63,038 nucleotides of DNA, filler included, from Pseudomonadota bacterium (GCA_043820105.1; 5 parts of 5 records of this genome joined end to end with filler, not necessarily neighbours in it), one strand, 5' to 3'. Positions 11,884 to 63,038 are shown, counted from the first letter of the whole stretch. A program made the numbers and translations. The notes: generated by a model not told the origin, from the letters alone.

Positions 11884-11983
11884 NNNNNNNNNNNNNNNNN
11901 NNNNNNNNNNNNNNNNNNNNNNNNNNNTTAATTAATTAANNNNNNNNNNNNNNNNNNNNNNNNNNNNNNNNNNNNNNNNNNNN
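11884..11983. other. artificial contig linker
   Basis: N44-TTAATTAATTAA-N44 (stops in six frames). Confidence 0.98.
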
Positions 11984-15166: not shown

Positions 15167-15266
15167 NNNNNNNNNNNNNNNNNNNNNNNNNNNNNNNNNN
15201 NNNNNNNNNNTTAATTAATTAANNNNNNNNNNNNNNNNNNNNNNNNNNNNNNNNNNNNNNNNNNNN
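15167..15266. other. artificial contig linker
   Basis: N44-TTAATTAATTAA-N44. Confidence 0.98.
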
Positions 15267-45297: not shown

Positions 45298-45397
45298 NNN
45301 NNNNNNNNNNNNNNNNNNNNNNNNNNNNNNNNNNNNNNNNNTTAATTAATTAANNNNNNNNNNNNNNNNNNNNNNNNNNNNNNNNNNNNNNNNNNNN
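45298..45397. other. artificial contig linker
   Basis: N44-TTAATTAATTAA-N44. Confidence 0.98.
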
Positions 45398-48513: not shown

Positions 48514-48662
48514 AGGAATTAAAAAATAAATCCACATCCTGATGCAATTTCAAGAGTTGGATTATTTGAAGATGCGTTTTGGTGGTTATTGTTTTCGTTT
48601 ACAGTATTTGATTCTTCTGAATCTAAAAAGTTTCCTTCAAACAAAGGTTCATCGGAAGCTGC
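48514..48662 (-). pseudogene. third GCGF-anchor fragment
   Basis: minus-strand translation AASDEPLFEGNFLDSEESNTVNENNNHQNASSNNPTLEIASGCGFIF*. Confidence 0.6.
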
Positions 48663-49260
48663 AACAGAAAAACAAGCAAACAACTTATTATCTTGGAGGC
48701 ACTCTGGATTTCATGTACATGCTAGCGAACCATTTGACTTAAATGACAGAGAAGGACTTATATCAAGATTAAGCTATGCAGGGCGTCCACCTTTGGCTGT
48801 AAGCAGGCTTGAATATAAAAATAATATTGTATATTACAAAACAAAGAATGGACTTACATTATCATTTTCACCACTTGATTTCATAGGTTTAATAACATCA
48901 CACATACCTGATCATTACCAAAATGTGAGAAGATACTGTGGCTTTTACGCTTCAAATGTCCAAAGAACCTTACCAAAGTCTGAAAATAAAGAGGATTTAG
49001 TTTCAATAGATGAAGATAAAGCAGTAAGCATTGGCTGGGCTTCATTAATAGCAAGAATTTATGGAGAGCTTCCGACAATTTGCCCAAAATGCGGGAAGGA
49101 AATGAAACTTAAAAAGTTTATTCTTAAGGAGGAAGAAACAACTGCAATTGTACCTTGGTCAAAAAGAGCACCTCCTAAGATCAAGTTTCCCAAGTTTGAT
49201 GAAGTGTCAGATAAAATTGAATATGTTTACGAACAGCAAGAAGAAGTTTCAATGTTTTGA
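48663..49260 (+). pseudogene. IS91-family (Y2) transposase, C-terminal fragment
   Basis: WRHSGFHVH, YAGRPPLAVSRL, PLDFI..HIP..VRRYCGFYAS, WASLIARIY..CPKCG. Confidence 0.85.
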
Positions 49261-49464: not shown

Positions 49465-49564
49465 NNNNNNNNNNNNNNNNNNNNNNNNNNNNNNNNNNNN
49501 NNNNNNNNTTAATTAATTAANNNNNNNNNNNNNNNNNNNNNNNNNNNNNNNNNNNNNNNNNNNN
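49465..49564. other. artificial contig linker
   Basis: N44-TTAATTAATTAA-N44. Confidence 0.98.
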
Positions 49565-49621
49565 AAGATAAGTTCTGAAGCAACCTTTTAATCAACTATT
49601 GATATTCCAGAACCTGGAATG

Positions 49622-49674
49622 TGCCAATCGGATTGAAAACTGGTCCACGAATCGGACGCAAAAGTGGTCCACCT
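49622..49674 (+). mobile_element. isolated IS21-type terminal repeat
   Basis: TGCCAATCGGATTGAAAACTGGTCCAC..GCAAAAGTGGTCCACC, close variant of 3171-3223; no ist genes follow. Confidence 0.75.
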
Positions 49675-49855
49675 AGCCCAAAAATTTTTTAAATCATTAT
49701 CCTTATATAAGTTTTTTTCCTTTTTCAATAATATAATATACATTAGTCAATAATTGTCATAAAGCATCCAGAAAAAAAAATAACTACCTCTTGTTTAACA
49801 ATCCCTGATATGATATAATTATATAATAATATATATAATGGGTATGAGTTATTAC

Positions 49856-50160
49856 ATGAAACAACACTTTATCACATTTTTTTTCCTTTTAATTCTAATA
49901 GGATGCAACAATTCTACAACGCAAGATACTTCAGGACAAAATGGATCATCAGATTCTGAAAATACACCTAATTTTACAGCTTCAGGCTATATTGACACAC
50001 AAAGCATACTCCAAGGCCTTGATACAAATACAATTATTACAAGAACTGATATAATTACTAGAACTGATATTATATCACCAATAGGATCACCTGGAAGTTT
50101 TTTCTTTAAGGATAATGTATCTTTTAACAAAAATTATTTTAAAAATTCAAATTATGATAA
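49856..50160 (+). pseudogene. lipoprotein with IITRTD repeats, truncated at a junction
   Basis: LIGC lipobox; the frame continues into the antisense strand of the lyase gene. Confidence 0.65.
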
Positions 50161-50781
50161 TGATTTCATTTCAGGATTAATTGCTTTAACAATTTCACAT
50201 ATTTTTTTTATATCAGATACAACTAGCATTGGATTTGTTGGTGTTTCAAATAAAAGGCATTTTGCATTTGGATTGTTTTTTACAGTTTCTTCAACAGCTT
50301 CAAGGTTTGCTGTGTTTACTTCAACAGTGTTTATTCCATAACGATTTAAAACATTGAAAGCCAGATGTTCAGTTGCACCATAAATTACATCACCGATGAT
50401 TATTGTATCACCTTGGCTAGCTAAAGCAAGTAGGGTGGAGGCAACAGCGCTCATTCCAGAAGAAAAAGCGATGGTTGAAACTCTCAAATCTGGGTTTTGT
50501 TTTTTTACTTCAGCCCCTTCAAGAGCATTAATTTTTGCTTCAAGTAAAAGAACAGTTGGATTTCCAAGTCTTGTGTACATATAACCAGTCTTTTGACCAC
50601 CAAAAATATCAGCACCTTCTTGAACATCTTTAAAAACAAATGTTGAAGTTTGGTAAATTGCTCCAGTATGAGATGTTTGCTGCGGCTGACCAACGTGTTC
50701 ACCTGCGTGAACGGTTCTTGTTGTAAAACCACAATCTAAATAATATTTTTCTAGAAGTTCTAAGCTTTTTGAGTCTTCCAT
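50152..50781 (-). pseudogene. methionine gamma-lyase-like PLP enzyme, N-terminal half only
   Basis: IYQTSTFVF, YTRLGNPT, FSSGMSA, FETPTNP; stops just before the VDNTF motif. Confidence 0.85.
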
Positions 50782-50905
50782 TTTTTTCTCCATTTTGAAT
50801 AAAGTTATGGAAGCTTTTAGCATATTGGAAATGAATGACAATTAAAAAATATTGAATGTTTTTTTATAAATTTTTTGTTATGAAATAGATGTAAGTTTGA
50901 TATTA

Positions 50906-52165
50906 TTAGTTATCTACTAATCCGTCATTTTGAAATTCAGTAGGAAGCATGCTTTGAGCTCTTTCAGAAATTGCTTGTCCTGTTTCAAAAAGATGAGCAT
51001 ATTGTGCTTTAGTAACATATCCACTGTTTAAATGTTCATTTACTAGAATTTGTGCAAGTTCATCTCTTCTTTTGATTCCAGCATCACTTTGTGTGCTAAT
51101 TGTGTCATTTAGTGTTGTATATTCGGCTGCTAAAGCAATTACTTTTCTGCCAGCATCTGTTTTTTCAACAAATTCTAGGCACCCTTGTTTGTCAGCATGT
51201 GTTCTGTGAACCATACATGATGATACTATATCTCTGCATGAATAAATTTTTTGTCCTTTTGCGCAAGAGTCAAAAACTGTTAAACAAAAAGAGCGTTTGC
51301 CAGAACTTAATGAGTCATAGCTTGCTGTGCATTGTTCAGCTGTTGGCATTCTACCTGTTGAGGATTCTTGTGCCATTTCTAACAAAGACCTATGAGTATC
51401 AGATAGAGCTCCTGAAACACATGCAAATGGATTACCAAGTTCTCTGTTTTTTGCTTCTAGTTCTTCTGGTGTGATATAGCCAGGATTAGTACTTGATTTT
51501 GGTACATATCTTCCATCTGCAACAGCTTGTACTGTTTCTGCCATTTCCTGTTGAGCCTGTCTCTCGGCAAGCATTTGTTGATGGCGTGCTAAGAATTCAG
51601 ATGGAACACCTGGTTTTGGATCATTTTGTTTAAGTTCTTCAAGTTCAGCCATTGTAATAGCTTCTGTTCTGTCAGTGCGCCTGAGTTCCATGTCTTGCCT
51701 GTCTTGTTGCATTCTTTGGGCTTGTCTTTGTCTATCTTCTTCTTGCTCTTGTTCTATGATTCCTCTAGTTCCTTCTTCTATTATTGCTAAATAGTCTTCA
51801 GCAGCACTTCCCTTTTCACTTTCTTTTGCTTTTTTTGCATCTATTAGTGCTTGGCGTCTGGCTAAAAATGCTACTAAATCTGCGCTATCAGTTTCTGTTT
51901 TATTAGAACTAAAGCTAGCTACATCTTCAGCTGTTAAGGCATCTGAAAAACCGATTCTGCTAGCTTCTATATCACTAATGTCAGCTTGTTTTCTTTCTTC
52001 TTGTTTTGCTCTATATTCTTCAGAATCTTGTTGAGCGATTCCCGAAGCATCAATCCCATCTGGACTTTCTTCAGAAGTCACAACTTGTGATAATGAAGGA
52101 AGTAGAAACAATGAAATTAGTAAAATTTTTAAGCTGCTTTTTGAATGTTTAAATAACTTTTCCAT
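50906..52165 (-). CDS. secreted orphan protein with one six-Cys module
   Basis: signal peptide, AGGAG RBS, helical Q/E/R-rich body. Confidence 0.8.
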   Translation of the reverse strand: MEKLFKHSKSSLKILLISLFLLPSLSQVVTSEESPDGIDASGIAQQDSEEYRAKQEERKQADISDIEASRIGFSDALTAEDVASFSSNKTETDSADLVAFLARRQALIDAKKAKESEKGSAAEDYLAIIEEGTRGIIEQEQEEDRQRQAQRMQQDRQDMELRRTDRTEAITMAELEELKQNDPKPGVPSEFLARHQQMLAERQAQQEMAETVQAVADGRYVPKSSTNPGYITPEELEAKNRELGNPFACVSGALSDTHRSLLEMAQESSTGRMPTAEQCTASYDSLSSGKRSFCLTVFDSCAKGQKIYSCRDIVSSCMVHRTHADKQGCLEFVEKTDAGRKVIALAAEYTTLNDTISTQSDAGIKRRDELAQILVNEHLNSGYVTKAQYAHLFETGQAISERAQSMLPTEFQNDGLVDN

Positions 52166-52223
52166 AATTCTCTCCTTGATTAATAAAATTTTGCTATTTT
52201 ATTTTATATTGTTAAATTTATAA

Positions 52224-52312
52224 TTCAAGTATCGTGCCAGGATTGTGTTGAGTGAAAGGGGTAATAAAAACAAAAGGTTGTGTGTTTGGTAGAGACAATC
52301 TTTTTTTCAAAA
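52224..52312 (-). promoter_or_regulatory. sigma-54 promoter with IHF-like site and upstream motif
   Basis: TGGCACGATACTTGAA; + strand AAACAAAAGGTTG at 52268-52280; + strand TCT7CAAAA at 52299-52312. Confidence 0.75.
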
Positions 52313-52337
52313 AAGGGATCGGATGTTTTTGTGCATA

Positions 52338-52378
52338 AAAAAACTCGGTATTGAAAAAGTATCAATACCGAGTTTTTT
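52338..52378 (-). terminator. intrinsic terminator (symmetric)
   Basis: AAAAAACTCGGTATTGA-N7-TCAATACCGAGTTTTTT just after the 52399 stop. Confidence 0.9.
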
Positions 52379-52398
52379 AATTTCTATATATTATTTTA

Positions 52399-53892
52399 TT
52401 ATTTGGTTGAGCAGGTACTATCGTCTTGGTCATATTCCCAAGAAACTATCCAACATTCCATTTCCTTATCATTAGAAAGTCCATATTCTTTCATCCTTTC
52501 AGCGCCAGCTTTTGCTTTTGGATCATCCATAACCATAGTCACTCGATCTGAAAAATCAAGTTCAGGATGTTCTTCTTTTAGTTTCAAAAATTCTTCTTGT
52601 GATTTTGTTTTTGCTTCCTGCTTAATTGCCTGGCAACCTGCTTGTCCGGCATTAGCTTTGCAAGAATCTCTTAATCCTGTACATTGATCAGGAGTAGTTG
52701 GAGCTGAAAAACAACCTCGCATGGTATCTGTGCAACCTGCTGTCCTTGGGTTGGAAGCACATGAAGCAGGTTCTAATCTAGCATCTTTAGTATCTTCTGT
52801 TGAAGCTGTGCTTGCTTCATTGTCAGCTGGGGTTTCTGCTACGGCAGCTTCTGGTGCAGGAAGTATGCCATTTTCTGCCATGGCTGCATATATTTCATCT
52901 GATTTTGAATAAAGTTCCATTGGGTTTTTGCGATACATTACACAACCCAACTCATCACTTGAAGCACACTTTGATTCTAATGCACTACACGTTCCAAGTC
53001 CAATTCTTTTGCTTGGATCTTTTTGGCAATCAGCGATGTATCTACCACAGTATCCGCCCTTATCTTGCATAAAAGGATTTGCTATACAATCTGAAGGATA
53101 AATATATTTCTTTTTAGGTTTTGTTGGTTCTACAACTTCGATTGCAGCATCTTCAGCAACAGCTACAACAGTGTCTTCAATGATTGATGGAGTACAAGCT
53201 CTAGCTGAAACAACAGGAGCGTTTTCTTCTTCTTTTGCTACAACAACATCTTCTTCTTGTGCTGATATATCATCTTCTAATACACTATCAATATAAAAAC
53301 TAGATTCACTACTTGAAGCTCTTGCTGTTTTTGCAGCTTCTTGTCTTGCTTGTTTTCTGTCTTTTCTAGCTTGTTTTCTTGCGTCTTTTCTTTCTTTTCG
53401 TTTATCTTTTTCTGATTTAACTGTAATTGTCATAGTGCCATATTCCACTTCTTCAATTTCTGCAGTAGCAGCGTCAGCTTCAGCAACTTGAACTGGTTCT
53501 GGGTCAGGCATATCTGTAATTACATCTTGGGCAACTGCAACCATTTGGTCTGTCATAGATTCTGATATTCCGATTAGTTGACCTTGTTCTTTTGAAAAGA
53601 ATGGGAAGCTTTTTAATACCCATTTTGTGGCAGCATCGTTTATCTTAGTTCTGATTTGTTGCTCAGATAATTCTTTTGGATTATCAACTGTAGCTAAAAC
53701 TTGATCTGGAAGCTCTCTTAGTTCTTGTTTTTGAGCTTCTGTAAAAGTTACACCTGATTTAGTCTGGGCTGAAGCTATCATTTCCTCAATAGCTTGAGCA
53801 GTTTCTGCTTCATCTGCCACAGTATTTGTTGTGAATACTGATGTTAATGCAAAGACCACCATTAATAAAACTGTTAAACCTCTCTTTTTCAT
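52399..53892 (-). CDS. secreted orphan protein with two six-Cys modules
   Basis: signal peptide ending TVA, AGGAGG RBS, K/R-rich helix, Cys modules. Confidence 0.82.
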   Translation of the reverse strand: MKKRGLTVLLMVVFALTSVFTTNTVADEAETAQAIEEMIASAQTKSGVTFTEAQKQELRELPDQVLATVDNPKELSEQQIRTKINDAATKWVLKSFPFFSKEQGQLIGISESMTDQMVAVAQDVITDMPDPEPVQVAEADAATAEIEEVEYGTMTITVKSEKDKRKERKDARKQARKDRKQARQEAAKTARASSSESSFYIDSVLEDDISAQEEDVVVAKEEENAPVVSARACTPSIIEDTVVAVAEDAAIEVVEPTKPKKKYIYPSDCIANPFMQDKGGYCGRYIADCQKDPSKRIGLGTCSALESKCASSDELGCVMYRKNPMELYSKSDEIYAAMAENGILPAPEAAVAETPADNEASTASTEDTKDARLEPASCASNPRTAGCTDTMRGCFSAPTTPDQCTGLRDSCKANAGQAGCQAIKQEAKTKSQEEFLKLKEEHPELDFSDRVTMVMDDPKAKAGAERMKEYGLSNDKEMECWIVSWEYDQDDSTCSTK

Positions 53893-54022
53893 TTTCTCCT
53901 CCTTTAAATAACCTTTTTAAATTAACTTAAATAAATAATCGACCTTGTTATAATTGTGCTTTTCAACCTTTTATCCTTATAAAAAAAGTCTTTTTTTATA
54001 AGCAAAGTATGAAATCTTATAT

Positions 54023-54111
54023 CGCAAATCTTATGCCAAAAAGGGCAATGTTAAAAAACTGTGATATTATAGTGTCTTATGGTGTTTTTAGATGAAGTCT
54101 TTTTTTCAAAA
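54023..54111 (-). promoter_or_regulatory. sigma-54 promoter with IHF-like site and upstream motif
   Basis: TGGCATAAGATTTGCG; + strand TCT7CAAAA at 54098-54111. Confidence 0.8.
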
Positions 54112-54171
54112 ACAGGAATTTAAAGTGGGTGGCATATTTTTGATCAGAAGTTGGACACCATGTTTTACGTT

Positions 54172-57100
54172 TTAATTAATAAATGTAACTGCAATGTTTA
54201 AGTTGTCACCATGACCGTCAATATCCATTCTTCTTAGGGCTTCATCTCTTAATAGATTTGTTGCTTCTTCGGGAGTTCTTGCATCTTTGATAATTCTAGC
54301 TGCTTCTTCTGGTTTTACAAAATCCCATAAGCCATCTGAAGCTTGGATGATGCGAGTGCCTTGTAGTAAATTAATTTCATGAAAACCAAAACTATCAGCA
54401 GCTGCATTGGGTTTTAAAGCACGAGAAACAATGTGTCCCCACATTCTTTCTAATTCTGGCGTAATTTCATCACCTTGATCTCTAAAACCATTAAGCAAGG
54501 AGTGGTCTTTTGTTTCGTATATTTTAATACCATCTTGAGCAATAACGGTTTTTGAGTCACCAAACCAGAAAATTTCAGCCACAAATTGACCGGGTGTTTT
54601 TTCATAAATTCTAACTAAAGTTAAACAGACACCTGAACTTGGCCCTATTTCTCCTTTGTTTGACAAATTGTTGTATACTTCTATTACAGACTTAAATACT
54701 CTAGTAATTGATGCGTTATTAAAACCTTCTGGATTTTTTGATTCTTCCAGTATTCTTTTTGGTATAAGATCAAGGGCGATTTTCATCGCTCTGTCACCAC
54801 TTCCTCCACCTCCCATTCCATCAATTGATAGAATATAGTAATCAGAGCTTTGAGCATCTTTTCTTCTTAACTTAAATATACCTAAACCATCTTCATTGGG
54901 ACCAGGTTTTTTAGGTCTGGCGATATCTGATACAGCAAAACTTTGAATTTTTCCATTATTAGTTCCTTGAACGAACTCACCAAAGGCAGCAGTTACTTTT
55001 ATTCCAAAAGAACCAAGACTATCTTCAATTGCTTCTGCAGCATTTTTTGCTGGCTTGTTGCTTTGGCTTGGATCTGCAATTTTAACTCTTCTTTCATATA
55101 TTTGGCCATCAACATTCCTTTGAAATAGGCCAATACTATCACCATCTTTTAGATGAAAAGCAGGGTCACCCTTTTTTATAGTTCTTAAATCTCCTCTTGC
55201 TGTAATAATTGCCAGAGGTGTTTGAGTTAGATTTAGGACAAAAATTTCACCAGAATCACTTCTCTTTACCATAATACTGGCTGAATGATCATAGCCTTTG
55301 CTTTTATCAAGTGGAATGAGGTTCAGGTTTGAGTCATTGGTAAAATAAAGAGATTCACCGGGTTTGAGATTTTTTATTAATATTGAAGGATTTGTTGCAC
55401 CTTCAAAAGGTGGCTCAAAAAACGAAACTCTGAAGTATTTTATTGATCCAATATCACTTTCTGATCTATATACTCTATCTCCTTGGGAAAGAGCTTTTTC
55501 TTGTCCAATTGCAAGAAATATTTTTTTGCCATTGGCTTGGATTATAACTGCTGATTGTGTGATGCATTTTATTCTTAAGCCAGTTTCAGTTTGTCTGAGT
55601 CCATATGCTGGATTTTTTCTTGTTACTTTTAAATCTTTATCAAGATCATAATATTGTCCGACCTTTAAACCTTTGATTTTTTTTGGTGTTATTGCCCGAT
55701 ATCTCGGAGCAATTCGATCAATTAGTCTTACAAAAATATTTCCTGAATAAAGTCTATTAGGTCTTGCTTGATCTTTATTTTTCACAAAAACATGGTCATT
55801 CCAGAATAGAGTTTCTGGGGAATCAGCTTTAACGGTATCTATTTTTGTGATTCCATGGTCCACGATAACTGGAAAGTTTGGTGCATTGTTTCCTGGGAAT
55901 ATTGCCTCAACTTCTGGTTTTCCTGTTGCAGAGTTTTTTTCAATAATTATGGTCACTTTGTTTGTCTCACAAGCTTTTTGAAAAGAATGAGCATCTACAT
56001 AGGCAACTTGAGCATCTGGTTCAAATCGGAAATCTGGGTTTGCAGGTAAGCCTTGGTCATTTCTGATTACTTCCCATTGCCCAGTTCTTTCATTTAACTT
56101 CATTTCAGGATACCATGTTCCTTCTACTCCTTCAACTTCTGCTCTTCTCCCTCCTGCTTGCAATGGTTCAACCACTAAAACTGCATCTGGAAAATTTCTT
56201 TGAATGCTCTCTAAAGATACAACTTTAGATTTACCTATAACTATTCCCACAGGCAATTGAACTTCAAGTGTGATTTCTGCTCTTCCATGACTATCATATT
56301 GAATTGTCTCAGGGAGCCATCGCATTGCAAAATCAACAACTTCTTGAGAATCTGCAAATAACTCTCTATTGAATTGTAATTTATCTGTTTGTTTATCCAT
56401 GTGCTTAGATAATTCACCTTTTACATGAGTTGTGCTTAGATCTGATTTTATAAAAGCTTCAGGGACAAGAGTAAGAACACCGTCTCCTAGGGTGCTTTTT
56501 CTCGTTGGTTTTATGGATAATGTATCTTTTCTTAAGCGTTCTTTGTCTGATCTACTATCTTCTTTTGCTGGGCTTAAGGCTCCTCTTTCTTCATATTGAC
56601 CATCTAACCAAAAAGCAATCCTATCACTTTTTAGTATGCTTGTAGTGCTTTCAAGCAATCTAGCTTCACTTTCTGTTAGGGTTTTATAATGACTCTGTTT
56701 GGTCTTTAATTCTTCATGTATAGCAAGTGCTTCACTTAAAACACTTAACTCATCAGCTTTATGGATTTCTGGTTTCATTTCCCGTACAATGGCTTCAATT
56801 TGTTCCCATTGTCCAGATTTTTTAAAAACTGCTAGCAATGATTTTTGTCTAGCAAGAGGAAGGGATTCAAAAAATGCATGTTTTTGTTCATGATCAAATA
56901 TTTCAAGTTTTTCTTGATCAGGCAATTTTCTAAATTCTTCTGTAAAATAAACCTTGCCATCACGTCTATCATAATACGTCTTGGCTTCAAGTGAGGAATC
57001 TTCAATCATTCTATCCTGTCTTTGTTCTGATGATTCCCTGTACATTCTTGCCTCGCTTACAGGTGGTTCCATCATTTTTCTCATTGTAGCTGTTCCCATA

Positions 57101-59274
57101 TGAAGGGCATAAAAGCTAACGAAATTCATTAATAATTCATTCCAAAAACCTTTAAAACTAGTATCTCCATGCAGGATGCCTTCTTTTAATTCATCATATA
57201 GTGTAAAACCAAGTGCCTGAGATCCAATTTCAAGATTCATTTTTAGAAATTTTGACATTCTTGTTAACTCATTTACAACTTGTCTTTGCAATGCCCATTT
57301 TCCGGCTGTTTTAACTGCTGTTTCTCTTATTACAAGGTTTGAACCATTAGAAAAAAATGAAGACGTGTGCATCATTTTCCCAACAGTATTATTAAAGCCA
57401 AAGCCAATAGCTCCAGCTATAATGAACATTTCAAAATATCTTAAATATTCTTTTGGTAAACTTGTTATCATCTGTAAAAAAGATTTTTCATGAATCATGC
57501 CATCTACAGGTGCTTTAAAGGCAGTAAAAAATGCCGTAAATAATAAGGTTCTTCCAAAGCCTTTTATAGCTGTTGTTCTTAATAAAGATTGTCTTGCAAC
57601 GGTTGTTCCAAGTTGTGCTACTTTTGCTGCTTTATGTGCTTTTAATACAATGCTCACTCCTGCTTTTGCTACAACAGCACCGCAGTAAAATAATACTGCT
57701 TCAATTGCAATATCCTTTGTGAACTTTGAAACAGTTTGAAAAATTTTAAGTCCTTTTACAAGGCCAGCTAAATGTACAGCTGTTTGCAGATTGGTTTTTG
57801 AAAGTAGAATTGTATTTTTTATGTTGTCTGGAACTTTAAGGTCTTTTGCTGTTATTGAAAAGATTTCGTTTGAATAAAGGTCTTGCGCCATTGCTTCAAC
57901 ATGAGCATTAAACTCTTCATCACTTGAAAAAATTGATTTTTGCCTTATTAAATTCTTTTTTGCCTTATAGTGTGAGTCTAAATATATTTCATTTCTTTTT
58001 TCATAATCCAATCTTAATTCAGCCTCTATTAATAATGGATTTAGGATTTCTTTTAATATCATTAAACCAGCTTGCAAAGATCCAATTGAAAATCTTTGGG
58101 CTAATCTATCAAGCTTTGAAAATGAGCTATCAACTTCTTTGAGTCTTCCAAATCTATATTTTACTGCTTTTAATACGGCTTCCCCTGCAACACCTTTTTC
58201 TTTGTTTATTGTACTCCAGGCAACATTTTCTAAATTAATATCAGTGTGATTTTTATCAAAAAATTTCATCATATCTCTATAAGCATCTGGATCTTTCTTA
58301 GAATAATCAATAGCATGAATTACTCTTTTTATAGCTATTGGAGTTTCATCATCTGATACGCTGCCAAATAAAGTTTTTAATTCATCACGATCTGAGTTTA
58401 AATCATAAGCCACCTCATTTAGGGCTCTTTTTCTATTTATAGCTTCAATATCATAACCATCTGATGCAAAATTTGATTCGATATAATCCATTTTTATCAG
58501 GCTTGATAATACAAGATTTAAGCTTTCCCTTGTTTTTTCTAAAAAATATGTTTCAAGACCAGCGATTTGTTCATTTAAAAATTCCGCGAATTCATTTTCT
58601 TCACCGTCATTCAAATAGCCTTTTGCTTTTTTTAATGATTTGTAAGAAGCATAGTAGTCTCCACTTATATATTCTTGAACTCCTTGATAGTAGCTTGCAA
58701 ATAAAACTCTGCCTTCTTGTTTGTGTCTAGTTTTTAACCTTTGTGCAGTTTCAAGGTTTTTTTGTTTGGATTCTTCGATTGCTTGAATTGCTTCTTTTTG
58801 AATTTCCTGAGTTTCAACATACTTATCAATTAATTCATCTGCGTTACTAGCAGTAATCCACTCTGGAGAAAGTTCTTCTATGTTACTTGTTAAGCCAGTA
58901 AACCAGGATTGTGCTCTATCAACATTTTCAAAAAAACTTGCTTCATCTGAATTATCTATTTCCATGATTATCTTAGAAAGTGTTTCTTTGTGTGTTGTTC
59001 TGTGAATAGAAAAATATGCCTTTTTAGTGAAATCCCACTTATTTGTTTTTTCCAGGCGATTCCTAACTTTTTCATATCGTTTTTCATAATATTGAATTGA
59101 TTCAAGATCTCTTGTGATTCTTGATTCATCCAAACCAAGAGTTCTTGCCTTTAGTTGTAGCTCATCACTTATAGTTGTGAAATTTTTTGAATATAAGGTG
59201 TTAAATGGAATCAGAATATAAATTAGAACACAAAATAATATTATACTAATAGAATTAGATTTTCTGATAAACAT
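54172..59274 (-). CDS. giant secreted multidomain protein with C-terminal PP2C (PPM) phosphatase
   Basis: start MFIRKS with AAGGAG RBS; signal peptide; hydrophobic central helices; HEQKH; FHA-like beta domains; NED, IDGMGG, GDS, DHS, ASDGLWD, GDN motifs. Confidence 0.85.
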   Translation of the reverse strand: MFIRKSNSISIILFCVLIYILIPFNTLYSKNFTTISDELQLKARTLGLDESRITRDLESIQYYEKRYEKVRNRLEKTNKWDFTKKAYFSIHRTTHKETLSKIIMEIDNSDEASFFENVDRAQSWFTGLTSNIEELSPEWITASNADELIDKYVETQEIQKEAIQAIEESKQKNLETAQRLKTRHKQEGRVLFASYYQGVQEYISGDYYASYKSLKKAKGYLNDGEENEFAEFLNEQIAGLETYFLEKTRESLNLVLSSLIKMDYIESNFASDGYDIEAINRKRALNEVAYDLNSDRDELKTLFGSVSDDETPIAIKRVIHAIDYSKKDPDAYRDMMKFFDKNHTDINLENVAWSTINKEKGVAGEAVLKAVKYRFGRLKEVDSSFSKLDRLAQRFSIGSLQAGLMILKEILNPLLIEAELRLDYEKRNEIYLDSHYKAKKNLIRQKSIFSSDEEFNAHVEAMAQDLYSNEIFSITAKDLKVPDNIKNTILLSKTNLQTAVHLAGLVKGLKIFQTVSKFTKDIAIEAVLFYCGAVVAKAGVSIVLKAHKAAKVAQLGTTVARQSLLRTTAIKGFGRTLLFTAFFTAFKAPVDGMIHEKSFLQMITSLPKEYLRYFEMFIIAGAIGFGFNNTVGKMMHTSSFFSNGSNLVIRETAVKTAGKWALQRQVVNELTRMSKFLKMNLEIGSQALGFTLYDELKEGILHGDTSFKGFWNELLMNFVSFYALHMGTATMRKMMEPPVSEARMYRESSEQRQDRMIEDSSLEAKTYYDRRDGKVYFTEEFRKLPDQEKLEIFDHEQKHAFFESLPLARQKSLLAVFKKSGQWEQIEAIVREMKPEIHKADELSVLSEALAIHEELKTKQSHYKTLTESEARLLESTTSILKSDRIAFWLDGQYEERGALSPAKEDSRSDKERLRKDTLSIKPTRKSTLGDGVLTLVPEAFIKSDLSTTHVKGELSKHMDKQTDKLQFNRELFADSQEVVDFAMRWLPETIQYDSHGRAEITLEVQLPVGIVIGKSKVVSLESIQRNFPDAVLVVEPLQAGGRRAEVEGVEGTWYPEMKLNERTGQWEVIRNDQGLPANPDFRFEPDAQVAYVDAHSFQKACETNKVTIIIEKNSATGKPEVEAIFPGNNAPNFPVIVDHGITKIDTVKADSPETLFWNDHVFVKNKDQARPNRLYSGNIFVRLIDRIAPRYRAITPKKIKGLKVGQYYDLDKDLKVTRKNPAYGLRQTETGLRIKCITQSAVIIQANGKKIFLAIGQEKALSQGDRVYRSESDIGSIKYFRVSFFEPPFEGATNPSILIKNLKPGESLYFTNDSNLNLIPLDKSKGYDHSASIMVKRSDSGEIFVLNLTQTPLAIITARGDLRTIKKGDPAFHLKDGDSIGLFQRNVDGQIYERRVKIADPSQSNKPAKNAAEAIEDSLGSFGIKVTAAFGEFVQGTNNGKIQSFAVSDIARPKKPGPNEDGLGIFKLRRKDAQSSDYYILSIDGMGGGGSGDRAMKIALDLIPKRILEESKNPEGFNNASITRVFKSVIEVYNNLSNKGEIGPSSGVCLTLVRIYEKTPGQFVAEIFWFGDSKTVIAQDGIKIYETKDHSLLNGFRDQGDEITPELERMWGHIVSRALKPNAAADSFGFHEINLLQGTRIIQASDGLWDFVKPEEAARIIKDARTPEEATNLLRDEALRRMDIDGHGDNLNIAVTFIN

Positions 59275-59320
59275 AATTTCTCCTTGATTTGAAACTATTT
59301 TTTCATTTTCAAGGATTATA

Positions 59321-59409
59321 TTCAAATTCCATGCCATAGGTTGAAAATGGATAAATATGTAATAAATCAATATGATACTGAGTTGAAAGAGGCAGTCTTT
59401 TTTTCAAAA
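59321..59409 (-). promoter_or_regulatory. sigma-54 promoter with IHF-like site and upstream motif
   Basis: TGGCATGGAATTTGAA; + strand AATCAATATGATA at 59365-59377; + strand TCT7CAAAA at 59396-59409. Confidence 0.75.
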
Positions 59410-59461
59410 GTGGGAGTTAAAGTGGGTGGCATATTTTTGATCAGAAGTTGGACGCCATGTT

Positions 59462-60565
59462 TTACTTTAATTTATCTTTAACATAATCTTTTGTTTGATA
59501 GTCTATTGTATTTTCAGCGGTGAAATCCACTATAGATGTATAGGTTGGACCAATGATTAAGCTGATTTTTTCCTGAGCTTTTGTTAAAACTCTTTGGACT
59601 AGGGCCTGCTGCCTTTGGGATAGTTTTTTAAAAGCCTTGTCTCCAAAATGTAAGACTCCATTTTTGACGACCGGTTTACCTGCTGAATATGCTTTTCCAA
59701 CTCCCATGCCTAAAGCCTGTAAGACCATGTAGGAAGCTATATCCCAGGTCTTCTTAATCATGTTTTCTTTTTTTCTTCTTACATCAGCCCCAGTGGCAAG
59801 ACCGGTTTCAGCTAGCCTTTTAGTGGTTTTATATTCATCATAGGTTCTTTCAAGGGCTGTAGTTAAATAAGTCAGATCAGCAGCAATGGTTACCCCCGCA
59901 CCATATGGTAAAAAGGCTGCAATAGTTGAGGCCTTTAAATAGATCTTTTTCATTTCAGGTGAGATAACATCTTCAGCTATTACATTGCTTTGTTTTAATC
60001 TGCAAAAAGATGCTGCGTGTTTTTGTCTGTTTAAGGAGTCTTTAAAAAAATTGGCCGCTATTGTATCATTCAGCATATACACATATGTGGACCTGCTGCT
60101 ATCGAGTTCCAGATTTTCATCTACATAAGATTGCAGTTCTGTGCCCGAAAAACCCTGATTCTTCCCTTCTTTTAGTACATGTCCCTCTAGATACGTTTTA
60201 AGATCATTTTTATAGGATTTTAATGCGGCACTTTTCTCAGATCTGCTAGCTGTTTTATTATAATATTCTACTTTTGCTTTTATTTCAGGATCATTGCAAA
60301 CTGCCAAAACAGCATCATCCACTGATTCAACTCCTCTAAGTTCAAAATAAAGTTCATCAACACAAATCTGATCATAATCAAAAGCAGGAGGATAATACCC
60401 GGAATCGGAAATGGCTTTAAAACAGCATGGATCATTTATAGAGCCATTATTTCTGCATAGACTGCACATCTGATGTATTGCGCTAGGATAAATTTCTCCA
60501 ATAGCCAGTAATATAATTAGTATATTTAAGGCCGCAAAGTAAATTGATTTCACTGAAAATCTCAA
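59462..60565 (-). CDS. secreted orphan protein with C-terminal amphipathic/hydrophobic hairpin
   Basis: TTG start with AGGAGG; Cys-rich N-terminus; IAAFLPYGAGVTIAA..VLQALGMGVGKA. Confidence 0.78.
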   Translation of the reverse strand: MRFSVKSIYFAALNILIILLAIGEIYPSAIHQMCSLCRNNGSINDPCCFKAISDSGYYPPAFDYDQICVDELYFELRGVESVDDAVLAVCNDPEIKAKVEYYNKTASRSEKSAALKSYKNDLKTYLEGHVLKEGKNQGFSGTELQSYVDENLELDSSRSTYVYMLNDTIAANFFKDSLNRQKHAASFCRLKQSNVIAEDVISPEMKKIYLKASTIAAFLPYGAGVTIAADLTYLTTALERTYDEYKTTKRLAETGLATGADVRRKKENMIKKTWDIASYMVLQALGMGVGKAYSAGKPVVKNGVLHFGDKAFKKLSQRQQALVQRVLTKAQEKISLIIGPTYTSIVDFTAENTIDYQTKDYVKDKLK

Positions 60566-60611
60566 TAGATGCTCCTCCTTGAATATACTTTGCTAATTAA
60601 ATTGTTTTTGT

Positions 60612-60699
60612 TTCAATAATTGTGCCAGACATGCTATGGTCGATTGAGCCTTATATAACAAAATGTTACATGGACAATGTGGAATTCTTTTTTTCAAAA
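60612..60699 (-). promoter_or_regulatory. sigma-54 promoter with IHF-like site and upstream motif
   Basis: TGGCACAATTATTGAA; + strand TAACAAAATGTTA at 60656-60668; + strand TCT7CAAAA at 60686-60699. Confidence 0.75.
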
Positions 60700-60741
60700 C
60701 CAGGAATTAATATATTTTTAATTATGGGAATTGTTTAAAAT

Positions 60742-62897
60742 TTATAATTCTAAAATAGCTATTTGTGCACTAACTTCTTCCAAATCACTTTGAGCCTGAG
60801 CTAGTTCACTTTGTTTTTGTCCTAATTGGTTATTTACACTATTCAACTGACCTTGCAATGTTGCTAAGCTTGCTTCATATGAAGAAAGTTGGTTTTGTCT
60901 TTGTGTTAAGGCTGCGTTTGCTGTGCTAATTTCTGAGTTTCTAGCACTTAAGGTAGTATTTAGTGTAGATATTTCACTCTGTTTATTCGTGATTTCAGTT
61001 TGCGATAGGGTTCTTGAGGCTATAGCTGCATTGTAGTTTTCTTGGGCTGTATTATAATCAGATTGAGCGTTCGCTTTATTTATTTGAGCAAGAGATAGTG
61101 ATGTCTCATGGCTTGATTTTGTGGAATTTGCTAAACTTTTTTCATCTTGTGCTGCTGACCTTTGGGTTTCATAGTTTGCTCTTGTGCTTTCCTTGTCACT
61201 TAATTCTGTGAGATTATTTGTACGATTTGATTCAAGTGTTTCAAGTGAGGATTCTAAAGAGCTTCTTTGAGAGATTGCTAGACTTTTTAAATTTTGAGCT
61301 TCATCAAGATCTGATTGTTTTTCGGTTTTAGAATTATTTAAATTACTTATTGTTGTTTGAAGTGCATTCCTATCACTTACAGATGTGCTATAAAGAGCTG
61401 AAGCAGTATCATATGATGATTGAACACTTGTTAGTGATGCTTGAGCGCTTGTTTTGTTTTGAGCTGCTAGGTTATAATTATCTTGAGCTGAATTTAAATC
61501 GTTTTGAGCATTTGCAAGTAAATTTTCAATTGAGATAACACTTGCTTGAATTGTTGTTAATGTGCTTTGAGCATTGTTAAAAGTATCAGTAGCATTTTCT
61601 AAGTTTGTCTGAATTGTTGTTACCTGAGCTATGGCTGTATTTAATGATCTTGTTGTATTATAAAGTGTTGTGTTTGCTAAATTATATGTGCTTTGTTTTG
61701 AACTAAGGATAGCTTCAGCGCTTTCGAGTGCTGCCAGAGCTTGGGCTGGAGTGATTGCACTAAAACTAGGAGATCCTTTTACAAATAAAGAGCTAGGGAC
61801 AACAGAATTATAAGTTGATAATGCACTATTATATTGGCTTAGACTTAAGTTAAGATCAGCTTGAGCAGAGTCATAATTTGTTTGAGCAATATCATAAGCG
61901 GACTGAGCTGCATTTAAACTTGTGTTAGCACTTGCAAGATCTGTTTCATATTGAGTTTTAACATTAGTAGCATTGTTTACAGCTAAGCTAGCGGCATCTA
62001 GTTCACTTTCAGCACTTGTTAGATCACTTGTATATTGAGTAATATTATTATTGGCTATATTCATTTCACTTGCACTAGATGTCATTTGTGAGTTAGCTGC
62101 ATTAATAGCACTTGAATATGAAGTGATTTGAGAGCTATAAGCATTCTTATCAATTGTAGCTTGTGAAATTATATTGTTTTTAAGACTTAGTGAAGCTTCA
62201 TTATTCGCAATATTAATGTTTAAGGTTTCAATTTCAGCTGTTTTTGTTGTAATTGTATTGGTGTGCGTGTCTATTGTAAGGCTTAGAGCTTCAATTTCAT
62301 TTCCAGTATTAGTGATTGATGTGCTTAAACCTTCAATTTCTGAATTTAAAGAAACAATTTCATTGGTTTTTGTATCTATTAAAGTCGTGTAGTAATTTAT
62401 ATCAGAATCTGTATTGTTGATAATTAAGTCTTGCTCATCAATTAATAAACCTATGTTAATAATTTCTGTATCATATAGATTAATATCATTTTGTAGGGTT
62501 CCAAGCACATCATTCAATCCATCTAGTTGTAACTGATAGTCACTGTTTGAAAGGTTTACTGCATCAAGTTCAGTTGTTAAAATGTTGATGTTTGAATTTA
62601 TCTGATCTATCTGAGTTTGAAGATTGTTAACATTATTTGTATAGTCATTTATCTCTACAGTAATAGTTGAGATTGGATTGTTTAGGTTTGAGATTTGAAT
62701 TCCTAAATTATCTATGTTTGAATTAATGTCAAAAAGATCTAAGTTAATATTAGCTATCAAATTTTCTAAAGAGCTTTGTTGTACATATAGGCTTTGCAGA
62801 AGATCTCTATTATAAAATTTTGCTATTACTTCAAAGCTTGATTCTGAGTTAATAATTGCTGTTGCTTCACTGATTTCACTTACAGCATAATTGTCTT
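60742..62897 (-). pseudogene. long S/T/N/A-rich coiled-coil protein, 5' end cut by an IS91-like insertion
   Basis: frame stays open upstream of 62760 to the element junction; continuous heptads with a central Pro-containing turn. Confidence 0.75.
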
Positions 62898-63038
62898 ATC
62901 CGTAGGAACTTTCTGGGATAATATTCAAGTATAAAGGTTCAATTGCCACAAAAAATATAAAAACTACAACATAAAGCACATATTGAGGAGGATGTACTCA
63001 TCATCCTCAATATGTGCTTTGCAAAAGTTATGTTCATG
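62898..63038 (-). mobile_element. IS91-like element end (second copy)
   Basis: exact reverse complement of 49324-49464. Confidence 0.8.

Follow-up and report, generated by a model that had tools for sequence, protein, structure and literature searches.

Sigma-54 activation is the textbook form of enhancer-dependent transcription in bacteria. Promoters of the NtrC/NifA/XylR type combine an upstream activating sequence, a site bound by integration host factor (IHF), together with a -24/-12 box, and to our knowledge all well-studied sigma-54 activators, the bacterial enhancer-binding proteins (bEBPs), use small helix-turn-helix (HTH) domains on dyad sites that tolerate changes in distance. The stretch of DNA described here (the window, 63,038 nucleotides (nt) from a Pseudomonadota bacterium, GCA_043820105.1) consists of five contigs of one draft genome, termed G000 (3.81 Mb, 113 contigs, 32% G+C), joined by N-runs at 11884-11983, 15167-15266, 45298-45397 and 49465-49564 (352 N in total), so that gene neighbourhoods across the joints are artificial. 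On contig C63 (window 49565-63038) four genes encoding proteins of 419, 497, 1700 and 367 amino acids (aa) are each preceded by a sigma-54-type box and, upstream of it, by an exact copy of the 14 nt motif TTTTGAAAAAAAGA. This motif is very probably the regulatory site of a sigma-54 sub-regulon, and a group of giant activators with a recombinase-like N-terminal module is proposed below as its reader.

The four promoters resemble the NtrC/NifA/XylR type in having a GG/GC-type box with 10 nt from the GG to the -12 dinucleotide, a site some 90-100 nt upstream of the predicted start with a loosely IHF-like element in between, and rpoN, bEBP and HU/IHF genes all present in the genome. They differ in that the site is one asymmetric sequence of 12-14 nt rather than paired dyads, in that over some 80 promoters of the genome its distance varies by ~1-2 nt and its orientation never (as a natural distribution only), and in having GA instead of GC at -12 in three of the four window boxes. 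The original prediction made from this DNA had described a canonical RpoN/bEBP architecture, and of this the sigma-54-type box, rpoN and the bEBPs stand, whereas a single oriented asymmetric site takes the place of the movable dyad.

The four TGGCA-N6-TTG boxes and the shared motif have the sequences and places given in that prediction, all on the minus strand, and the window contains exactly four exact copies of TTTTGAAAAAAAGA. When one mismatch is allowed the count is still four, compared with 1.14 +/- 1.00 in 100 shuffled sequences, one of which reached four. The box alone is not significantly enriched in the window, with five occurrences of TGGCA-N6-TTG, four of them at these promoters, against 2.88 +/- 1.73 in the shuffles, and neither are sigma-70-like promoters in the region (27 against 35.2 +/- 6.4). 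Measured from the motif's final base to the GG's first G, the spacing is 61, 61, 61 and 60 nt, the same pattern as the 70/70/70/69 first reported from other reference points. The 10 nt from GG to the -12 dinucleotide is found in all four boxes; the C at -12 is lacking in three, which read TTGAA as had been noticed, and only the box at 54023..54038 has the canonical GC. On these features the four promoters are assigned to the sigma-54 type and to a group termed class A.

Across G000 there are 21 exact copies of TTTTGAAAAAAAGA, and a sigma-54-like box lies 59-62 nt downstream in 17 of them, always in one orientation, as compared with 8 of the 52 copies with one mismatch. The pattern motif-N56-61-TGG-N8-TTG gives 15 matches and its backwards-read control none, and with a stricter box score 13 copies show the same orientation at the fixed gap with none reversed. 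The relaxed motif TT[GA][AT]A[AT]AAAAGA extends the set to 26 class A promoters, which are concentrated on contigs C1, C10, C29 and C63 and in all of which the first T lies 70-72 nt from TGG. The observation made in the window is thus confirmed and is larger than stated. In the 17 promoters none of the 14 bases varies, in contrast to the unconserved 58-59 nt that separate motif and box. The class A motif occurs at only 19 of the 200 sigma-54 sites found outside long open reading frames (ORFs) with a looser pattern, and it is therefore a marker of a sub-regulon rather than a general feature of sigma-54 promoters. The TTGA form of the -12 element is over-represented with it (8 of 23 intergenic TTGA boxes compared with 11 of 172 TTGC boxes). 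Most class A sites have in addition TCCC or TCCT 2-3 nt upstream of the 14-mer (for example window 52315-52319), which may extend the site or form a second contact; nothing comparable is seen upstream of the class B sites described below.

The first genes downstream of the class A promoters were called by our own start-codon and Shine-Dalgarno rule without a gene caller, and leaders were judged by eye as hydrophobic stretches without a signal-peptide predictor. By these means 22 of 23 protein genes have a hydrophobic leader, with a lipobox-like Cys in seven and a prepilin motif in one; the 23rd, a RecA-like gene behind a site with two mismatches, is probably a false match. A Pfam scan of 19 regulon proteins leaves 11 without a family at E <= 1e-4, and the other eight contain FG-GAP, MopE-type, TSP_3, N_methyl, FHA or PP2C pieces. 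For the most part the downstream genes bear no relation to each other, with paralogues present in the clusters on C63, C29, C1 and C10. At the sensitivity used, these sequences indicate that the class A motif marks a regulon of mostly exported, lineage-specific proteins. The earlier proposal of one activator for four exported orphan genes is borne out in the character of the proteins, and its size has to be revised to ~26 promoters with a sister class of ~53.

The sister class emerged from a blind 8-mer enrichment over 196 intergenic sigma-54 boxes lying >=200 nt from a contig end, which returned two families of words, both peaking ~70 nt upstream of TGG. The first consists of class A words, and the second is AACATAAA/TTAACATA, present in 20-22 promoters where ~2-3 are expected. 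Of the 52 genomic copies of the corresponding class B 12-mer, TTTAACATAAAA, 38 stand at the fixed offset from a sigma-54 box, as do nine of the 24 copies of TTAAACATAAAA. A relaxed set comprises 53 promoters with 70-71 nt from motif start to TGG in 48 and none reversed. Aligned by position, classes A and B have 8 of 12 bases in common. A repeat or mobile-cassette origin of the promoters was considered and rejected because the spacers are not conserved.

The reverse complement of TTTAACATAAAA is TTTTATGTTAAA, which contains TTATGTTAAA and includes 10 of the 11 bases of TTATGTTAAAT, given in the available parts of two sources as the XerD-binding arm of dif and pdif sites (PMC10132070; PMC3089051). 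By this comparison the class B motif is the XerD arm of dif in reverse complement, and class A shares only part of that arm. The surroundings are unlike those of a dif site: the aligned flanks of the class B sites show no conserved XerC partner arm or 6 bp spacer, and in place of two inverted arms at one site per replicon there are 52 class B 12-mers in the genome, dozens of them at promoters rather than at the replication terminus. No second copy of the motif was found in the aligned flanks of class A (14 nt) or class B (12 nt) sites, and the sites are non-palindromic. The best palindrome-like match to a canonical dif site, C92:14359, is itself a class B promoter.

The genes of a sigma-54 system are present in G000. 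rpoN is identified by a DNA-binding domain match of 1.7e-62 in a 481 aa frame, and there are 31 strong Sigma54_activat matches (bEBP genes) and five HU/IHF-family genes in which IHF and HU are not distinguished, so that the proposed check for rpoN, ihfAB and bEBP genes is answered fully for the first and last and only at the level of the family for ihfAB. The pattern TGGCAC-N5-TTGC is found outside long ORFs at 61 of 73 sites and the looser pattern at 200 of 322, and other sigma-54 promoters of this genome have ordinary TGTCA/TGACA dyads.

Counted from the T of TGG, the class A promoters form a rigid module in which the 14 nt site occupies -73 to -60, an IHF-like element -41 to -27 and the -24/-12 box follows. 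The element common to both classes has a T-A-A-N4-Y-T-R core at a fixed position, 27-41 nt upstream of TGG, with T at -41 in 46, A at -39 in 67 and T at -33 in 57 of the 79 promoters, and an A/T-only run is present at -31 to -24. The IHF consensus is WATCAA-N4-TTR. The fixed-position element matches the CAA-N4-TTR core of this consensus and is putatively IHF-like as a loose core only: the element predicted 30-42 bp upstream is in its place in that form, and only four of the 79 promoters, one among the 26 of class A and three among the 53 of class B, have the strict WATCAA-N4-TTR.

Nine of the bEBP genes are very long, eight encoding giants of 1661-1986 aa and the ninth a protein of 1119 aa. 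All eight giants have a Phage_int_SAM_1 match (PF02899) at residues ~6-82 in Pfam, followed in seven by Pkinase (~260-505), AAA_16/STAND, MalT-like TPR, GAF, Sigma54_activat, AAA_lid_14 and HTH_8. The 1661 aa giant is without a Pkinase match and the ninth protein has only TPR, GAF, AAA+ and HTH. A model of the first 260 residues, calculated from the alignment of the eight sequences, has a predicted local distance difference test score (pLDDT) of 87. Foldseek matches it to XerA (PDB codes 5hxy and 4a8e), lambda Int (1z19 and 1p7d), XerD (1a0p), Cre and XerH with probability 1.00 over 224-275 columns; the TM-scores of 0.35-0.57 are lowered by the inter-domain angle. A search of PDB sequences with the module finds the archaeal XerC-like protein 4a8e (E = 2e-4).

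In an alignment of four giants with three intact Xer proteins of G000, which has at least three such recombinases of ~300 aa, the Arg I column is occupied by Ser, Asn or Lys, as it is in all eight giants. The HxxR arginine is replaced by proline, and the segment bearing the nucleophilic Tyr is missing, with the kinase glycine loop beginning at that point. Of the 172 positions of the Pfam catalytic domain, the match reaches no further than 119-121. The two-domain fold of a tyrosine recombinase is therefore retained without its R...HxxR...Y residues. The loss of Arg I, the HxxR arginine and the Tyr segment, together with the short domain match, points to a truncated recombinase clamp, and from sequence and model the N-terminal module is predicted to be a catalytically dead derivative of the tyrosine-recombinase fold. 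The giants would thus share with XerD on its dif arm the two-domain fold and, for class B, the arm itself, and they differ from XerD in lacking catalytic Arg I, Arg II and Tyr.

This fusion is rare in the databases. Five proteins with E < 1e-30 are returned from 1.84 billion representatives by a profile of the N-terminal module, and by their length (1661-1965 aa) all are giants of G000 itself; the next match has 9e-22, and among the 150 matches listed the others are of 92-818 aa. A word-indexed search among proteins of 1077-3429 aa returns only two, both from G000. With the C-terminal 510 residues as query, kinase-TPR-GAF-sigma-54-HTH proteins of ~1550-1750 aa without PF02899 are common (41-46% identity over the last 510 residues; assigned by the sources to Polyangia, Deltaproteobacteria and Planctomycetes; some named PknK). 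Among the 120 best matches listed the only foreign carrier of PF02899 is P0155 (1957 aa, from a JGI metagenome contig of 7125 bp), the N-terminus of which aligns without gaps to the giant on C10 at 26% identity and is also without Arg I. A metagenome pattern scan with P0155 gave 194 matches, none of them confirmed by tblastn. The closest described relatives, the PknK/MalT-like STAND kinase-sigma-54 AAA+ proteins (~1650-1700 aa), have the same order of kinase, AAA_16, TPR, GAF, Sigma54_activat and HTH_8 and lack the ~260-residue Xer-like module. We know of no characterised DNA site for these proteins. In two genomes of the same order, proteins of ~1017 aa (G001:C44:16123-19182 and G002:C23:2934-5981) begin with this truncated Xer-like module, Phage_integrase being matched at positions ~6-135 of 172, and continue for ~770 residues in which Pfam finds no family; they are a different fusion of the same dead recombinase module.

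Motif copies that have no sigma-54 box connect the sites with the giants. Four exact class A copies are of this kind, two of which flank the start of the giant gene C10:95034-100931, at -149 and +34. For class B there are 14 such copies, and two of these form a tandem pair, in reverse orientation, at 21-47 nt before the start of the giant gene C90:167680-173559. With each pair treated as one event and a target of 9 genes x 310 bp in 3.81 Mb, the chance estimates are ~2e-3 (class A/C10) and 1e-2 (class B/C90). Eight of the 26 class A promoters are within ~23 kb of the C10 giant gene, and a class B promoter facing away is located ~500 bp upstream of the C90 giant gene. Classes A and B were defined before the activator genes were inspected, and three smaller classes were matched afterwards. 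Class C, TTTAAT.TATA[GC]T, has 10 copies, five at sigma-54 boxes, with a copy at -79 of the C27 giant. Class D, TTTAACTTAA, has 36 copies, eight at sigma-54 boxes, with one copy at -86 and another at -219 of the C88 giant, and class E, TTTAACAAAA, has 111 copies, seven at sigma-54 boxes, with one at -29 of the C49 giant and a class E promoter just upstream. Exact 14-mer and 12-mer counts are relied on in place of a matching of 10-mers and 11-mers from the 5' regions of the giants to promoter positions, which was dropped since 8.3% of random windows reached support >=20 with A-rich words. Autoregulation of the giants, of either sign, is suggested by the motif copies at their genes.

The three other species-level genomes of the same class in the collection searched (completeness 81-96%) contain 9-32 bEBP matches, none near 1950 aa and the longest frame being 1416 aa. 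They have no motif-promoter matches for class A or class B, compared with 15 and 30, respectively, in G000, which is the outcome of the scan of relatives proposed with the original prediction. Across the whole genome collection the loose pattern motif-N56-61-TGG-N8-TTG gives at least 113 stretches; among the 80 listed these are single matches in unrelated taxa, with one genome occurring twice, and no conclusion on distribution can be drawn from them. The class B motif with a sigma-54 box gives eight single matches in metagenomes, about the estimated chance level. Only one of the eight resembles a real sigma-54 promoter (L211, OGZM01000439.1:32264-35346, a contig of 30% G+C). Here the distance from TTTAACATAAAA to TGGCACATTATTTGCT downstream is 56-60 nt, the gene that follows has a strong Shine-Dalgarno sequence and TTTGAAAAAAAG stands just upstream of the motif. 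L211 may represent a remote relative of this architecture or a chance match.

The arrangement we consider probable, with moderate confidence, is that the Xer-like module of a giant activator holds it to a single asymmetric half-site, that the DNA is bent by an IHF-type protein and that sigma-54 then fires. The 14 nt site would be the docking site of one giant, the best candidate for the window promoters being the product of G000:C10:95034-100931, so that the likely activator is one of the eight giants with a dead Xer-like module instead of an ordinary NtrC-type bEBP. In this scheme the dead recombinase module would read the dif-half-site-like sequence and hold it as a clamp at about -99 to -86 from the start (the T of TGG being at -26). 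An IHF-type protein would bend the DNA at about -67 to -53 and fold the ~60 bp between site and promoter. The AAA+ ring, presumably assembled through the STAND/TPR region when the kinase and GAF sensors allow, would then meet sigma-54 at -12 and open the promoter. Each paralogue would have its own half-site variant and regulon, class B being the XerD arm itself and C, D and E smaller. A recombinase monomer covers a half-site of about 12-14 nt in the Cre and Xer structures, and a single oriented site of this length fits such a monomer better than a dimeric Fis-type HTH. We infer the binder, its binding domain, the IHF bending and the dependence on sigma-54 in vivo from sequence. The wider scheme is put forward tentatively, at somewhat less than an even chance: that at least 79 predicted promoters of this uncultured bacterium (26 class A and 53 class B) are run by the eight giants reading a dif-half-site code, each paralogue with its own half-site variant, its own regulon and a copy of its site at its own gene.

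Several points weigh against this arrangement. The class A copy at +34 of the C10 gene is coding (LLKKRK) and may owe its presence to the encoded protein, which leaves one clean copy at that gene; a motif class is matched for only five of the eight giants, and the assignments of C, D and E are post hoc. The co-occurrence of motif and giants rests on three distant relatives, which as kin are not independent. Class A is less like the XerD arm than class B, with which it shares 8 of 12 aligned positions, and a single half-site is unusual for nucleating a hexamer. The giants also retain a C-terminal HTH_8, the usual DNA-binding domain of bEBPs, and homologues of ~1650-1700 aa without the Xer module are widespread, so that HTH_8 could read the motif instead.

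This last point leads to the alternative that survives best, a canonical enhancer in which the Fis-type HTH_8 of an ordinary or giant bEBP contacts the motif, phasing with the IHF bend accounts for the constant spacing, and the Xer-like module has another job or none. It draws on the retention of HTH_8 in all giants, on the hundreds of 1550-1750 aa kinase-TPR-GAF-sigma-54 homologues that presumably bind DNA by HTH_8 without an Xer module, on 22 other HTH-bearing bEBPs in G000 and on the TGTCA/TGACA dyads at other sigma-54 promoters there. Fis-type HTH domains of bEBPs work as dimers on inverted repeats, however, and each motif stands alone and in one strict orientation. It would also have to be a coincidence that class B equals the XerD arm (chance estimated at < ~1e-3). 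Between G000 and the three relatives, motif-bearing promoters occur only in the genome that has Xer-fused activators. We regard this alternative as rather unlikely.

A quite improbable alternative is that a separate protein, either a stand-alone Xer-type recombinase or an architectural protein, occupies the motif and brings in or places an activator that is not the reader of the site. The three or more intact ~300 aa Xer-type recombinases of G000, among which a true XerD could bind the class B arm, and short bEBPs without a sensory N-terminus (308 and 340 aa) are consistent with this, but two firm and three tentative motif classes would have to be shared out among only three Xer-type proteins, each class has copies at a different giant activator gene, and the sites have neither XerC arm nor 6 bp spacer beside them. 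That the motif has no specific binder, being a curved A-tract or UP-like looping aid or the remnant of a duplicated promoter cassette, is scarcely credible in spite of the A7 tract in class A, the paralogues in the clusters on C63, C29, C1 and C10 and the 31 nt repeat that precedes four sites, given that 14 of 14 bases are invariant in 17 promoters with the 58-59 nt to the box unconserved, that class B stands at the same place without a long A-tract, that the downstream genes are mostly unrelated and that motif copies occur at activator genes without a sigma-54 box.

The preferred arrangement, with a recombinase-derived module as the DNA reader of a giant activator, has partial parallels. The available parts of two sources describe TnsF of Tn6022-like transposons, in which an inactivated tyrosine-recombinase domain is a sequence-specific target selector (PMC10293859), and the plant ALOG domain, derived from an Xer-type N-terminal DNA-binding domain (PMC3537659). 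As far as these parts go, both are like the G000 giants in that a tyrosine-recombinase DNA-binding scaffold has lost catalysis and is reused to recognise DNA. TnsF guides transposition and ALOG proteins are eukaryotic regulators, whereas in the giants the scaffold is fused to an AAA+ activator, is present in eight paralogues and would read an enhancer. A full-text literature search, with most subscription journals outside its coverage, found no bEBP with a recombinase-derived domain and no fixed-distance half-site enhancers.

The features of the four window promoters are collected in Table 1.

Table 1. Promoter elements, genes and repeats on contig C63, in window coordinates. Distances from GG are measured between the motif's final base and the first G.
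Feature	Position	Strand	Basis or remark
Class A motif TTTTGAAAAAAAGA, promoter of 419 aa gene	52299..52312	-	exact match; 61 nt from GG
IHF-like core CAA-N4-TTG	52266..52280	-	27-41 nt upstream of TGG; 79-promoter consensus
Sigma-54 -24/-12 box TGGCACGATACTTGAA	52224..52239	-	sequence read
419 aa protein gene, N-terminal hydrophobic leader	50906..52165	-	ORF; paralogue on C29, N-terminus similar
Strong hairpin, 17-pair stem and T-run, between 497 aa gene and next promoter	~52337..52378	-	hairpin scan
Class A motif, promoter of 497 aa gene	54098..54111	-	exact; 61 nt from GG
IHF-like core TAA-N4-CTA	54065..54079	-	sequence read and 79-promoter consensus
Sigma-54 box TGGCATAAGATTTGCG, only canonical GC at -12	54023..54038	-	sequence read
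497 aa protein gene, signal-like leader	52399..53892	-	ORF
31 nt repeat TCCAAC...GCCACCCAC	54125..54155	-	directly upstream of class A motif; 1 of 7 genome copies
Class A motif, promoter of 1700 aa gene	59396..59409	-	exact; 61 nt from GG
IHF-like core TAT-N4-TTG	59363..59377	-	sequence read and 79-promoter consensus
Sigma-54 box TGGCATGGAATTTGAA	59321..59336	-	sequence read
1700 aa protein gene	54172..59274	-	N-terminal hydrophobic segment; second near residue 530; C-terminal PP2C fragment
31 nt repeat, second window copy	59422..59452	-	directly upstream of class A motif
Class A motif, promoter of 367 aa gene	60686..60699	-	exact; 60 nt from GG
IHF-like core TAA-N4-TTG	60654..60668	-	sequence read and 79-promoter consensus
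Sigma-54 box TGGCACAATTATTGAA	60612..60627	-	sequence read
367 aa Cys-containing protein gene, hydrophobic leader, TTG start	59462..60565	-	longer relative on C1

All four window proteins have a hydrophobic leader at the N-terminus as judged without a signal-peptide predictor, and three of them have no Pfam family above the curated cut-off; for the 419 aa protein there is also no usable Atlas match. In the 1700 aa giant only a PP2C fragment is found (residues 1674-1714 of the 1732 aa frame scanned in Pfam), and its sole relative among proteins of 935-2975 aa is the paralogue on C29 with 62% identity. The description of this protein as a toxin-like giant is rejected, no toxin family being matched. 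It is one of three membrane-anchored giants in the class A regulon (C1:16705-21315, C29:41708-46819 and window 54172-59274), two of which have a C-terminal PP2C fragment and one an FHA domain. A phospho-signalling feedback loop between these proteins and the kinase-bearing candidate activators is conceivable. The hairpin downstream of the 497 aa gene is predicted to separate two transcription units.

The 31 nt element TCCAAC...ATGCCACCCAC is preceded by (A/G)TGG(C/T)(G/T), able to pair with GCCAC. Besides the two window copies it is found at C1:40816, C29:40458, C65:42557, C79:816 and C80:20736 of G000, and four of the seven copies are placed directly upstream of a class A motif and just past the stop codon of the preceding gene. 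It might serve as a second protein site or as an RNA element, or be just a small repeat. Near-identical short units occur right after sigma-54 boxes at G000:C10:114438 (-), C1:16559 (-), C98:6198 (+) and C105:213 (-), two behind class A and two behind class B promoters, with a similar unit upstream of the C49 giant gene. They consist of ATAGTATCTTAATAGTTTCATAAT..., a C-rich stretch and a hairpin with T-run, ~75-90 nt in total, and on this composition they are probably small RNAs; a scan of the small-RNA locus gave no Rfam family, only a tRNA passing the threshold.

Two further features are located towards the ends of contigs in the window. A 672 aa protein encoded at 60742-62760 (-) is rich in Ser, Asn, Thr and Leu and without a hydrophobic leader, has weak intermediate-filament and crescentin-rod matches (coiled coil), and its upstream region runs past the contig end. 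A Y2_Tnp-type transposase fragment lies at a contig end at 48589-49260 (+), with a 442 bp copy, 90.7% identical, on C47.

If the proposed arrangement is true, the giants would represent a new DNA-reading module for bEBPs, in which the Xer/dif chromosome-resolution recombinase and its site have been domesticated as transcription factor and operator. The paralogues would then constitute natural orthogonal activator-site pairs within one cell, useful for synthetic circuits. For an almost unsampled bacterial class the motifs provide a handle on its regulons, with ~26 class A promoters serving exported proteins and small RNAs and ~53 promoters of class B.

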